Assembly (NCBI GenBank): GCA_016212095.1
Contig: JACRHH010000027.1
Coordinates: 23,880-87,879 of the forward strand
Reading direction: 5' to 3'
Origin: Nitrospirota bacterium
GTDB lineage: Bacteria; Nitrospirota; Thermodesulfovibrionia; SZUA-242
Length of the DNA stretch: 64,000 nt
The notes beneath the pieces are model-generated. The model had not been told where the DNA came from, did not search any database, and worked only from the letters and a program-made list of their open reading frames with translations. A program made the position numbers and the translations under genes. Positions 11,225 through 26,214 of this stretch are shown piece after piece (positions within the stretch are counted from its first letter, which is position 1; each line of letters begins with the position of its first letter).

Positions 11225-13843
11225 CTATTGTCGAACCGGAACTCTCAGGTAAAACCTGCTTCCCTTGCCGTATTCGCTCTCGACGGACACTTCGCCTTTC
11301 AGCACTTCAGTGGCCAGCTTCCTTGTCAGGTACAGCCCAAGCCCCGTGCCGAGGATCTTCGAACTCACGGGCGATTCCAGACGGACAAAAGGCGAAAAGA
11401 GTTTCGGAATATCCTCCTGCCTTATGCCTATGCCGCTGTCGCTCACCGATATCTCAAGAATACCACCAGACGATATGGCGCGCACCTCCACGGAACCCTT
11501 CAGCGTAAACTTGACCGCATTGCTTATGAAGTTGAGCAGGCACTGGAGCAACCGGCGTCTGTCGGCATGTATCGTCAGGTGCTCGGCATCCGCCTTGAGT
11601 TCAAGTTCCTTGTCTTTTACGTCCGCCGTAAAGGTGGACATGGCCTCGGCAACCACGTCGAAAACATCGAAATCTTCGGGACTTGAATCGATCATCCCGG
11701 CTTCGATCTTCGAAACGTCAATCACGTCGTTTATAAGAGACAGAAGATGCCTGCCGGATCTGAGTATGGCGGAGAGATTCTCCTTCTGCTCGCCGGACAC
11801 AGGGCCTGCCCATTCATTGAGCATGATGCTCGAAAAGCCTATGATCGAATTGAGAGGCGTCCGGAGTTCGTGGCTCATCGATGCTATGAACATCGATTTC
11901 AGGTGGTCGAGCTCTTTCAGCTTTGCATTGGCCTGTTCCAGTTCCATGGTTTTTTCGTTCAGGTCTTCCACGATGTTCATGAGCGCCATCTGGCTGTCTT
12001 TCAGTTCGGCGCCCGTTTTCTCCAGATCCACGGTGCGCTCGACAACGCGGTTTTCAAGTTCCTCGTTCAGAGCCATGATCTCGGCTTCAGCCCGTTTTCG
12101 TTCGGTGATGTCCCTGAATACAACAACCGCGCCGACAACAACCGCGTTATCCACAAGGGGAGTGTTGACATGCTCCACCGGGAACATCCTTCCGTCACTT
12201 CTCCAGAATACTTCATTCAGCCCGCGGTACGTTTCTCCATGGGCAAGCGATCGATGCAGCGGACACTCTTCAGGCGGGTAGGGCGCGCCGTCGGCTTTTG
12301 TATGATGAAAGATGTCGTGGCTTTTTTTACCCAGAACATCCGGTATGGCGCATCCGAGCATATCCTGCGCGGCCTTGTTCATGAACACGATATTGCCGTT
12401 TATGTCGGTTCCGTATATGCCGTCTCCAACGGAATTCAGGATCATCTCATTTCTAAGACTAAGCTGCTTGAACAGATCTTCGGCCCGTTTGCGTTCGGTG
12501 AGCTCGAAGAGCAGTTGTTTATTTGCGTCATGCAGGTCGGAAGTGCGTTCCGCTACCCGCGCTTCCAGCTCATCCATGGATTTGCGAAGGGCATCTTCCG
12601 CCAGCCTGCGCCGATAGACATTGAACGCCAGAATAACGATGCCGGAAGTCATTATGATGAACATCATCAGCGCGCTTGCGACAAGATACGTGTGGGATTC
12701 GATGAAAGGAACCGGCCTGTTGACAATAATGCTGCCCTTGGGCAACGCCCTTGCCGGAATGCCGAAACGTGCAAGCCGGTCATGATCGAACATCATCCGT
12801 GTTGGCGGCTTCATCTCAACCGGAATGCCCGATGCCGGAGTTCCGGATAATATCTTGAGAGCCAGCCGGGCCGCATCTTCCCCATGAATTTTTCCACCAA
12901 GAAGGCTTCCGCCCACAATCCCGTATCCGAGCCTTTCAAAATGCACCCCATACACAGGCACGGGAGAGTTTGCGGCAAGAAGCCCTGCAATATCCTCATG
13001 CCCTATCACCTCCCCATCCTTGAACACGCTATATGTAAGCGCAAGAACCAGGCTGTCCTCATGAAGCCCATTGAGCAAGCGCATCAACTCTCTTTTCGTC
13101 AGATCCTCCACATTCCGGAATGATATTCCGTCGAACATTCCCTTCATCTGCTCCTGCGCCTCCTGGCGTGTAGCCAGACCGGTGGAGGTATAGTCATGCA
13201 CAACAACTATCTCTCGTGTTTTTGGATGGAGCTTGAGCGCCATGCGCACAGTGCCAACCGCATCGAGGACTTCCGCATGGCCGGTTATGTTTTCCTGTCC
13301 GCCGAGCATCTCTTTCCTGAAGTTGTTCACTCCGCAAAAGACAATGGCCGAGCGGGGGAAAAGCTGGGAGCGGTACTCTATGGCGAATTTGAGCGCCGGA
13401 TTGTCGGCAGCCATGACAACCGGAATATCCCTGTTGCCGTATTTGAGCTTGAGCAGGTCTTTTAGCAGATCGAAATGCTCATATTTCGGGTGGCGCTTGC
13501 AGTCCAGATATTCCACATGATACCGGACGCCGGGAGCCGAATCCTGTAACATTGCGATTATTCCGGCTATTTCGTTGTCCGACCAGGCGTGTCCCACATG
13601 GTAGGAGTTGAGAATGAGGATTTCCACTGAAGGCTTAAACGGCTCTGTCGAAGCCTTGGCGTGTTTTGTGTCAGCCTGCCTGGTCGGCAGTTCGATCTGA
13701 ACGGTTTTTCCCACTTCCCGGTATGCGATGTACATCAATGCCAATACTGCAATGCTCAGGAGCGAGATTGCAATGGCAGCCTTGCGCGAGGCAAAAAAGA
13801 CCGGCGAAAGTCGAGCCAGAAAAGCTTTCCAGTGTTCCATCAT
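11225..13843 (-). CDS. Sensor histidine kinase with periplasmic ABC-substrate-binding-like domain, PAS domains, HisKA and HATPase
   Basis: N-terminal TM, then [15 protein letters not shown] (ABC_sub_bind-like), a second TM, and PAS segments. H-box [16 protein letters not shown]. G boxes [14 protein letters not shown]. ATGA overlap with the upstream gene. Confidence 0.9.
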   Translation of the reverse strand: [872 protein letters not shown]

Positions 13844-24658: not shown

Positions 24659-26214
24659 GTTGTTAACCCTCCTGCGCCTGAACGCCCGGTTTTGTTCTCC
24701 AGCTCCGCTATCTTCTTCTTGAGTTCAATCATCCTGAGTTCCCTGCCCACGAACATCCGGTTCATCCGCTCCAGCTCCGCGTTCTTGTCCTCCAGTTCGG
24801 TCGTACGCTCTTTTATGCGCATGTCGAGTTCCTCGTTGAGCATTCGCAACGATTCCTCCGCCCGCTTGCGCTCGTCCAACAGATGAATGCGGTCGAGCGT
24901 GACCGCCATGTGGCTTGCCAGGGCGCACAGGTATTCCTGTTCGGATGTTGTGGGCATCCGCGCGCCCTCATCGCCGAACGTACCCGTTCCCACCGATCCC
25001 ATGTGTTTGTCCATGAGGAAAATAGGGATATTGACGATTGTCCTGTTTCCCAGTTTCGCCACGATCTTCTTGTCGGTTCGTTCGTCCGTGCGCGCATCCT
25101 CGACAACCACAATGTTTTTTGCCTCCGCAATCTCTTCGAGCATCCGGTCGCCCCGGATGGTGAGCGTTGCCGCGCCTTCCTCCGACAGAATGGCATCAGC
25201 CATCGCCCCCTCGGCCATAAGCGCCTTCGCGTATTGCTTGTCCTCGGTAAAAAGATACGCCCACAGGTTCTGATAACCGATGATCGCGCGGACTTCATCG
25301 CGCGCCGCGTTCAGTACCTCGGCGTAATTCCGTGCTGTTTCCAGCCTTCTGGAGAGGCGAAGCAGCGATTGCGTGAAACGTTCCTGCTCGCGCAATGCCT
25401 CCTCGCTTCGCATGAGCGCCTCATGCGAAGCTGCCCGCTCCATGATGAATCGCCTGCCTTTGGCAAAGAAAAGGCCGAGCATTGCCGAGCCGAGCAGCCA
25501 GATGGCAAGGTGAGAAAGGAGAACCGCATTTGCCGCCTTCTTCTCCATGGCCTGATACTGGGCCATCGGCACGTTGACGCCCACGCCGCCCCTGACATCG
25601 CCAGCCTTGTATCCCTGATGCGCATGACATTTGAGGCATCCTGCTTGCGCCACCATGGGGCGCATCAGCCGGAGGCTCTTTTTCCCGTCATGTTCGGTGA
25701 TGGCAAAAAACTCCTTCGCGCCATGCTCAAATGCCGTCAGCGCCTCGCGTTCCCATGGATCGGGCGCGTTTGCCGGATTCAGCGGCTTGAGGCTGGTTAT
25801 GCGTCCCTTGATACCGTAGAGTTCATCGAAGTCGGACATCAACTGACGCACCATGTATGCCGGGTTCATCAGTGTGAGCCGCTTGCCTGATGGCAGCGTG
25901 ATGTCACGATCCGGGATGTGGCTCAGATACGGATTGGGCGGGGTCTGCACGGTCGGCGGCACATAGACACCTCCATGCTTTGTTCCCCACAGGCGAAAGG
26001 CCATGTCCTTGTTGAAATTGGAGACGGCCTCTTTCTTTGCGAGCGCAAATGTCTGCTCGTGCTCGTTGTATACGTTCCATGAAGCCGAGCCGATGACAGT
26101 GGCTGTCCAGATGAGCGCCGCCGCTGCGGATATCCGGTGGAAATATGTGAGCCCGTTATCATTTTTGGCGTTCATTGTCGTGTTCCTGGCGCATCGGTCT
26201 ATCCGGTTTATCAT
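24655..26214 (-). CDS. Tll0287-like/DUF3365 (CxxCH haem-c) periplasmic sensor + TM + GAF protein ending in the shared tail
   Basis: ...RLMRPMVAQAGCLKCHAHQGYKAGDVRGGVGVNVP (CxxCH), TM, and a GAF-like region. C-terminus ...ERTTELEDKNAELERMNRMFVGRELRMIELKKKIAELEN. Alternative start 26175. Confidence 0.8.
   Translation of the reverse strand: MINRIDRCARNTTMNAKNDNGLTYFHRISAAAALIWTATVIGSASWNVYNEHEQTFALAKKEAVSNFNKDMAFRLWGTKHGGVYVPPTVQTPPNPYLSHIPDRDITLPSGKRLTLMNPAYMVRQLMSDFDELYGIKGRITSLKPLNPANAPDPWEREALTAFEHGAKEFFAITEHDGKKSLRLMRPMVAQAGCLKCHAHQGYKAGDVRGGVGVNVPMAQYQAMEKKAANAVLLSHLAIWLLGSAMLGLFFAKGRRFIMERAASHEALMRSEEALREQERFTQSLLRLSRRLETARNYAEVLNAARDEVRAIIGYQNLWAYLFTEDKQYAKALMAEGAMADAILSEEGAATLTIRGDRMLEEIAEAKNIVVVEDARTDERTDKKIVAKLGNRTIVNIPIFLMDKHMGSVGTGTFGDEGARMPTTSEQEYLCALASHMAVTLDRIHLLDERKRAEESLRMLNEELDMRIKERTTELEDKNAELERMNRMFVGRELRMIELKKKIAELENKTGRSGAGGLTT

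Follow-up and report, generated by a model that had tools for sequence, protein, structure and literature searches.

How does a sensor protein that carries no output domain hand on its signal? The question is raised by five genes in a 64,000-nucleotide (nt) stretch of DNA from a Nitrospirota bacterium (GCA_016212095.1, contig JACRHH010000027.1, positions 23,880-87,879 of the forward strand). The whole stretch is called the window here, and positions are counted within it. The five proteins have different sensory domains and end in the same short helical tail. We found that this tail is a C-terminal module under selection, and that its gene order is specifically linked to one histidine kinase subtype (HKA), a single-domain receiver (REC), and a kinase with receiver domains (REC-kinase). 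The tail is probably the means by which many sensors feed one kinase.

A sequence-only reading had described five open reading frames (ORFs) on the minus strand, and translation reproduced each of them, together with its reported C-terminal sequence. Translation and Pfam searches assigned them to a Tll0287-like-GAF sensor (24655-26214, tail at approximately 24658-24840, junction inspected; formerly labeled a 'CxxCH sensor'), a MASE3-PAS membrane sensor (19527-21038, tail at approximately 19530-19700; formerly 'about 7TM'), a PocR sensor to which a shortened tail is joined directly (18794-19474, tail at approximately 18797-18937, placed by the tail alignment), a CHASE-GAF-PAS membrane sensor (16792-18768, tail at approximately 16795-16941), and a REC-PAS-PAS response regulator whose sole 'output' is the tail (13840-15336, tail at approximately 13843-14016, junction inspected). 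The claim that they have no output domain held: neither HisKA nor HATPase_c nor any other output domain was detected with Pfam. As the sequence-only reading had stated, each tail stop codon is closely followed by the next start codon (-4, 52, 25, 16, and -4 nt), which leaves no space in which a kinase core could be hidden. The stop codons of the genes at 24655-26214 and 13840-15336 each overlap the start codon of a kinase gene by 4 nt (ATGA), namely that of the kinase at 21017-24658 (HKB) and that of HKA at 11225-13843, respectively. By sequence, both overlaps are cases of translational coupling.

Alignment of the five tails gave the consensus LEQRV.ERT.EL..KN.ELE..N..FVGRELRM.ELK..I..LE, after which 0-13 variable residues precede the stop codon. 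Twenty columns are invariant, and the identity to the first tail is 49-68%. The tail of the PocR protein is shorter and lacks the ERT heptads; [EQD]RT is present in four of the five. At the DNA level the tail-coding segments are 56-79% identical, and identical residues are encoded by different codons in about half of the cases; the adjoining PAS domains share 19-42% identity over partial lengths. The tails are alike in protein yet synonymously diverged, which shows that selection acts on the protein. The same divergence rules out a recent DNA duplication or an assembly artefact as the source of the shared tail. The exception is the pair at 18794 and 19527. These two tails have their last 20 residues in common (...LELKERIKELEKQQTSGGQA), and only 14% of the codons for identical residues differ. 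Their 3' ends (18794-18860 and 19527-19590, minus strand) are almost identical in DNA, and the likeness continues for approximately 24-25 nt past the stop codons (CAGGCATGACCGGC.AT.CATTTG). This DNA pattern indicates a recent gene conversion between the neighboring tails of the PocR and MASE3-PAS genes.

What kind of element is the tail? It is a helix of about 50-60 residues, of which the first half is a signaling helix (S-helix) with the ERT signature and the last 25 residues are a separate, nearly invariant motif, N-(K/R)-x-F-V-G-R-E-L-(R/K)-M-x-E-L-K-x-x-I-x-x-L-E. Among 353 unique tails, the ERT signature retains its arginine in 97% and its threonine in 95%, and almost all positions are conserved in the sequence logo, which is inflated for a reason given below. 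S-helices have been defined as heptad coiled coils of about 40 residues with ERT at positions c, d, and e of the central heptad, and are almost always located between two signaling domains (Anantharaman, Balaji and Aravind 2006, PMC1592074). The first approximately 30 residues of the tail agree with this definition, as they form a heptad coiled coil with ERT directly after a PAS, GAF, or PocR domain. The tail differs in what follows. In 164 tail ORFs, the S-helix is succeeded only by the conserved 25-residue helix and a stop codon and not by a second signaling domain, and the FVGRELRM.ELK motif is absent from the S-helix description.

AlphaFold2 modeled a single chain (28-sequence alignment) as one unbroken helix from residue 2 to 62, with block-mean pLDDT values of 94-98 and the last 7 residues disordered. 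When the register was set from ERT at c, d, and e (PMC1592074) and read off the logo of 353 tails, the heptads were unbroken over all 48 residues, with N3, L6, V10, R13, L17, K20, L24, M27, F31, R34, M38, L41, I45, and L48 at the a and d positions. The 100% conserved arginine of G-R-E, R34, occupies a core d position three heptads past the ERT arginine. V32(b), L36(f), and V39(b) of the distal motif line up as a second hydrophobic seam opposite the a/d core, as would be typical of a helix buried on two sides.

These features bear on the simplest function that a terminal coiled coil might have, namely that of a homodimerization or stabilization zipper which caps the sensor dimer, any coupling to a partner running via the PAS or GAF domains or small-molecule products. 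The continuous heptads with their good a/d occupancy, the single long helix obtained with AlphaFold2, and the dimeric nature of S-helices (PMC1592074) all agree with it. A zipper, however, does not require that the b, c, e, f, and g positions stay nearly invariant from bacteria to archaea-like bins, nor does it call for a conserved Gly-Arg in the core or a second hydrophobic seam. It also leaves unexplained why conservation is so much higher in the tail (57-79% identity) than in the neighboring PAS domains (19-42%), and why PocR and GAF domains join the tail directly with no PAS domain between. Judged by its sequence pattern, the conservation of the tail appears to go beyond the requirements of a zipper, and we regard this explanation as unlikely.

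Whether the tail is a described domain had been left undecided. It is not a named domain in Pfam or NCBIfam. Pfam searches at E-values up to 10 matched the tails to generic coiled-coil families only, far under the cut-offs, and not to HisKA or HATPase_c. NCBIfam holds no tail model and returned weak matches only, to the linker between REC and HD-GYP of a NosR-type regulator. The best match in a PDB sequence search had an E-value of 0.13. A full-text literature search for the strings FVGRELRM, GRELRMIELK, and NIVEDLN gave no papers, and a search by concept surfaced papers on the S-helix and on RsbK and nothing on C-terminal tails. No description of the C-terminal module or of its tie to a specific kinase subtype turned up in Pfam, NCBIfam, PDB, or the searchable literature.

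When 1.84 billion cluster representatives were searched with a profile of the tail, 51,771 matched at E ≤ 1e-3, of which 6,095 also passed E ≤ 1e-10. Some of the weaker matches, and some of the 6,095 as well, match by an S-helix only. An FVGRE-type motif is present in 136 of the 142 new best representatives, in every case within 39 residues of the C-terminus. The other six lack it, and the five inspected match through S-helix segments. One of the six, P0151, is a natural fusion of a REC-PAS-PAS-tail with a transmembrane (TM)-CHASE-tail protein, each part ending in a divergent tail (MIGRE.RI.E.KEEV). A second variant of the tail, ...N.(A/M)(V/I)(G/N)RE.R(M/I).E(L/M)K.E(V/I)N.LC...+YP, is C-terminal as well (P0151, P0138, P0112, and the gene at 10151 in locus L163), so that the family is wider than the FVGRELRM form. 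According to Pfam, the inputs of 88 representatives are mainly PAS (76), GAF (15), MASE3 (13), and REC (9) domains; HAMP, MEDS, PocR, solute-binding, Tll0287-like, CHASE, and MASE1 domains occur in fewer of them. HisKA/HATPase was found in a single representative.

To collect gene neighborhoods, genomes were scanned with the PocR protein as seed, metagenomes were scanned with the tail as seed, and contigs were looked up. Together with the window, this gave 85 loci. These loci contain 164 tail ORFs, all of which stop 8-35 residues past the motif. No kinase core is present within any of these ORFs, and 23 of them have an N-terminal REC domain. The tail is thus C-terminal in 136/142 representatives and 164/164 locus ORFs. 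A relaxed hidden Markov model search of every ORF in all loci found no intermediates; the tail is all-or-none, which also speaks against a mere zipper. A PocR-tail ortholog of the same architecture was found at 85% identity in one locus (L001), and the exact PocR-tail protein has no database record. The 'many sensors, one tail' architecture proposed from the window alone proved to be real, widespread, and selected, as seen from the 85 loci, the 142 representatives, and the synonymous divergence.

The same collection addresses the concern that the five genes might be histidine kinases that have decayed or been mis-assembled, the tail being the remnant of a linker before a lost core. If homologs always ran on into a HisKA/HATPase core, the window genes would have to be seen as truncated. 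This was the case in none of the 164 tail ORFs and in one of the 88 representatives, and the tail genes are therefore not truncation artefacts. Decay would fit our alignment of the tail with short-coil HKAs, in which the two are colinear over the S-helix and as far as the middle of DHp helix 1, the tail ending approximately at the position of the phospho-histidine. It would also fit the MASE3-PAS-tail protein, which matches positions 2-390 of 655 of the NCBIfam model MASE3_PAS_HK, up to the expected start of the kinase core. On the other hand, the end point is identical and a conserved non-kinase motif is present in many independent proteins, the synonymous divergence points to purifying selection, and the downstream genes have start codons and signal or TM regions of their own. 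There is no conserved histidine in any column of the 353-tail logo, and the tail has neither the phospho-acceptor histidine nor helix 2 nor the CA domain that belong to a HisKA/DHp core. Decay is highly improbable. Two related candidates were rejected. Read-through or a frameshift into the next gene does not apply, as the downstream genes have N-terminal sensor or TM regions of their own and the gene after a tail gene is in most cases not a kinase gene. A pseudo-DHp with a His to Arg exchange (FVGRELRM compared with HisKA, or with 'IARELHD' of HisKA_3) would require two 3-residue gaps in a by-eye alignment to HisKA, and HMMER finds neither similarity. Mimicry of the H-box is retained only as a possible evolutionary origin of the tail.

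Which partner, then, receives the signal? The sequence-only reading had nominated the three kinases of the operon. Gene order singles out one of them, HKA (11225-13843, minus strand; Pfam and subtype alignment), a conserved neighbor of tail genes. It consists of a periplasmic region, a TM segment, and PAS, S-helix, coil, HisKA, and HATPase regions. The subtype, referred to as type A, was defined by the long coil (...ERT.DL....EL..) that leads through.ELD to.GP. In the tail loci, this one subtype dominates the nearby kinases. Tail genes often occur in runs of two to six, and the window shares with more than 20 loci the order of one to six tail genes, HKA, single REC, and REC-kinase; output-less sensors thus lie in an operon with a kinase, as expected of stand-alone sensors and their cognate kinase.

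The window fits this cassette exactly once two corrections are made to its gene map. A 124-residue single-domain receiver directly after HKA (10839-11213, minus strand; Pfam Response_reg, E 2e-28) had been missed, since the long ORF call at 8806-11076 (minus strand) hides it between the kinases at 11225 and 8806. The second correction concerns the latter kinase, previously started at 11076. Its true start is most likely M79 at 10842, which overlaps the stop codon of the REC gene. With this start, the last gene of the cassette (8806-10842, minus strand) encodes a hybrid kinase with REC-PAS-HisKA-HATPase-REC domains (Pfam). The three kinases are accordingly not equivalent: that at 8806 is the downstream REC-kinase of the cassette, and that at 21017 looks like part of a separate methylation module with CheR and CheB, discussed below.

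The association was quantified against 77 sensor-rich loci without tails. HKAs make up 28 of the 52 ORFs with an H-box in tail loci and 1 of 61 in the controls (Fisher p = 3e-11), and the enrichment persists after collapsing the sequences to 20 clusters at 90% identity (p = 2e-8). A tail gene lies directly upstream or one gene away in 16/20 distinct HKA clusters. The downstream genes are conserved too: 8 other loci have a REC after HKA with 67-82% identity to that of the window, and the REC-kinase that comes next is 43-54% identical to its window counterpart in other loci. Sampling from the kinase side revealed a tail gene upstream in both informative type-A loci (L165 and L166), and none upstream of two more distant, non-type-A kinases. 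Two further type-A matches at contig starts again showed the order HKA, REC, REC-kinase; like a Methanoperedens tail gene at a contig end, they are uninformative on upstream genes. Of the 23 tail genes with an N-terminal REC, 12 immediately follow a hybrid kinase gene, so that the tail sits where the output of a response regulator would.

Two single loci deserve mention here. P0280 (locus L170, uncultured archaeon, GCA_902386115.1) has a type-A core with 'SLLNIVEDLN'; in the same arrangement as the window, a REC and a REC-PAS-kinase come after it, and it is annotated in its source as 'Methanogenesis regulatory histidine kinase FilI'. In locus L164, the terminal REC protein of the tail locus (14722-16647) has an HD-GYP-type domain (HD_5/HD) and not a kinase, which hints that the cassette can end in cyclic di-GMP turnover.

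How might the tail act on HKA? In the reading that we favor, and to which we give somewhat better than even chances, the tail is a minimal output module. Tail proteins would be complete sensors, or receiver-containing regulators, without enzymatic or DNA-binding output, and would act on HKA in trans. The tail coiled coil would dock on, or swap strands with, the long S-helix/coil/DHp coiled coil of HKA. The ligand state of each sensor would thereby modulate autophosphorylation of HKA, which would pass the signal to the conserved single-domain receiver and the REC-hybrid kinase. We infer the direct contact between tail and HKA from gene order and sequence-pattern reasoning, and the sign of regulation is likewise part of the proposal. 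With the register set from ERT, LFVGRELRM.ELK of the tail would face the segment of the HKA coil that ends in.KT. A tail homodimer would place R34 opposite R34' and R37(g) opposite K42(e'). A pair of tail and HKA would place R34 opposite I34, K41 of HKA opposite L41 of the tail, and D37(g) of HKA opposite K42(e') of the tail. On sequence reasoning, these pairings suggest a preference for hetero-association, in HKAs with the long coil; those with a short coil and no insert are not covered by it.

A bolder version would make the tail the mark of a new class of two-component receptors, in which a portable 50-residue S-helix plus docking motif connects dozens of sensor folds, as well as phosphorylated receivers, to one HKA by a hetero-coiled coil. 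Specificity would then come from the buried Arg/Lys and the charges at e and g, with R34, R37, and K42 of the tail facing I34, E36, and D37 of HKA, and one kinase would integrate many signals without gene fusion. We put this forward tentatively, as a possibility that has the odds somewhat against it.

Several observations weigh against a direct coupling of tails to HKA. The loci were selected for tails and many come from related, Desulfuromonadia-like organisms, so that phylogeny accounts for part of the HKA enrichment. Among the loci of 8 kb or more, about half have no HKA within 10 kb, some of them ending at a contig edge, and 4/47 contain no kinase at all; if the model holds, the tails of these kinase-free loci have to act on a kinase from another locus. 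Some HKAs without the 21-residue (three-heptad) insert in the coil still adjoin tail genes, and the insert segment cannot therefore be the sole docking site. The conservation logo is inflated, as its sequences were picked by a profile and a regular expression.

The loci without a nearby kinase would also suit a different conserved partner, for which the single receiver after HKA, the receivers of the hybrid kinases, or a housekeeping protein encoded elsewhere come into consideration. Receiver docking has a precedent in CheY-P, which binds a helical FliM peptide. The very high conservation of the tail across phyla argues for a very conserved partner surface, and the REC after HKA, at the identity given above, could offer one. 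Nevertheless, runs of tail genes followed by HKA persist without a downstream REC in L134, L144, L146, L150, L151, and L154. Unbiased clustering of the neighboring genes showed no further conserved non-signaling partner. Outside signaling, the recurring neighbors were limited to periplasmic binding proteins, TonB-dependent receptors, and DUF4154/YfiR-like proteins, which are plausibly accessories of membrane sensors. Such a partner in place of HKA seems quite unlikely to us. In L082, L090, L091, L161, L087, and related loci, genes for TonB-dependent receptors, DUF4154 (YfiR/HmsC-like), SBP_bac_3, Peripla_BP_4, and Phosphonate-bd proteins are interleaved with tail-sensor genes, which suggests pairs of binding protein and membrane sensor.

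The window also contains a CheR-type methyltransferase (15927-16775, minus strand; Pfam CheR_N and CheR) and a CheB methylesterase without its usual receiver domain (15299-15934, minus strand; 211 residues, Pfam CheB_methylest only). Are the tails methyl-accepting helices, whose glutamates are reversibly methylated by these enzymes for adaptation of the sensors? Both genes are located among the tail genes, and CheB is directly followed by a REC-PAS-tail gene in the window, L129, and L148. Moreover, the S-helix of RsbK from Bacillus cereus is methylated by the CheR-like RsbM (PMC4574943). Yet CheR or CheB homologs occur in only about 6/85 tail loci, in place of the consistent genomic association expected for CheR substrates. 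The chemoreceptor methylation consensus [ASTG][ASTG]xx[EQ][EQ]xx[ASTG][ASTG] was found in 1/353 tails. The five window proteins contain neither this consensus nor, according to Pfam, an MCPsignal domain. As a general explanation of the tails, the role of CheR/CheB substrate is rejected on these two counts, and we consider it very unlikely overall.

A more obvious substrate is present where CheR and CheB co-occur (window and L148), as a kinase of the HKB subtype lies in the same cluster. HKB of the window (21017-24658, minus strand) has 4HB_MCP_1, GAF, HisKA, HATPase_c, and three Response_reg domains in Pfam. The coiled coil between GAF and HisKA reads 'EELRVQQEELQQTNEELEE...NQEIEAAS' (elsewhere quoted as 'EELQQTNEELEE...QEIEAAS') and includes one half-site of the consensus, 'QEIEAA', at residue 517. 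The same coil ('QTNEELEERAE...') recurs beside CheR/CheB in L148, where the order HKB-CheR-CheB is the same. With an MCP-like sensor, GAF, S-helix coil, kinase core, REC domains, and a CheR-type methyltransferase nearby, HKB has the architecture of the B. cereus RsbK/RsbM system (PMC4574943); this likeness concerns HKB and not the tails, and the B. cereus system has no paired esterase, unlike the window with its CheB. Given the rarity of CheR/CheB in tail loci, the near-absence of the consensus from tails, the co-occurrence with HKB, and the RsbK precedent, the CheR and CheB of the operon more likely serve HKB. By analogy, HKB, CheR, and the receiver-less CheB look like a reversible version of the RsbK/RsbM system for S-helix methylation.

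How does the proposed docking of tails on HKA compare with other multi-input systems? Chemoreceptors (MCPs) with CheA likewise fuse many variable inputs to one extremely conserved helical module, and in the tail loci, too, several receptor genes lie beside one kinase and a single-domain receiver, occasionally with CheR/CheB. The tail systems differ in having no MCPsignal domain, hairpin, CheA, or CheW, in tails that lack the methylation consensus (but for the single case above), and in their kinase, a classical HisKA dimer with sensor domains of its own. Closer in gene arrangement are H-NOX/HahK and NosP/NahK, where output-less sensors encoded next to a kinase control it by direct binding. Tail proteins are output-less sensors encoded beside a kinase as well. 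However, in each of the H-NOX and NosP families the interacting unit is a single sensor fold, whereas the tail is a portable C-terminal helix on at least 10 sensor folds, often in several copies per operon. In Pseudomonas aeruginosa, RetS controls GacS via helical dimerization regions and not by phosphotransfer, which resembles the helical contact between sensor and kinase proposed for the tails. RetS, in contrast, keeps a full DHp-CA core, and the tail helix stops at approximately the level of the phospho-histidine.

Sensor-only proteins are usually dismissed as 'PAS domain proteins' of unclear role, and a large class of them is now defined by a conserved C-terminal helix. This class (6,095 representatives at E ≤ 1e-10, partly S-helix-only) has a link to one kinase subtype. 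Should the coupling be direct, many inputs would be wired in a modular manner into one phosphorelay, which would explain signal integration in sensor-rich anaerobes such as relatives of Geobacter and Desulfuromonas, Nitrospirota-like bins, and Methanoperedens-like archaea, and the tail would provide a small transferable docking tag for synthetic multi-input kinases. A new domain model is warranted, as tail genes are now annotated as kinases, as 'chromosome segregation ATPase', or as hypothetical.

A few further features of the window were noted. Across 8-26 kb, the minus-strand sensor genes have long shadow ORFs on the opposite (plus) strand, such as one of 613 residues at 13666-15507, and a 22-member 'family' without a Pfam match in the collected loci is probably a shadow-ORF artefact as well. 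Just past the signaling operon lie two paralogous ORFs (28380-29501 and 29422-30531, minus strand) with a CxxxCxxC motif (NICINRCRFCA.), which suggests radical-SAM enzymes.

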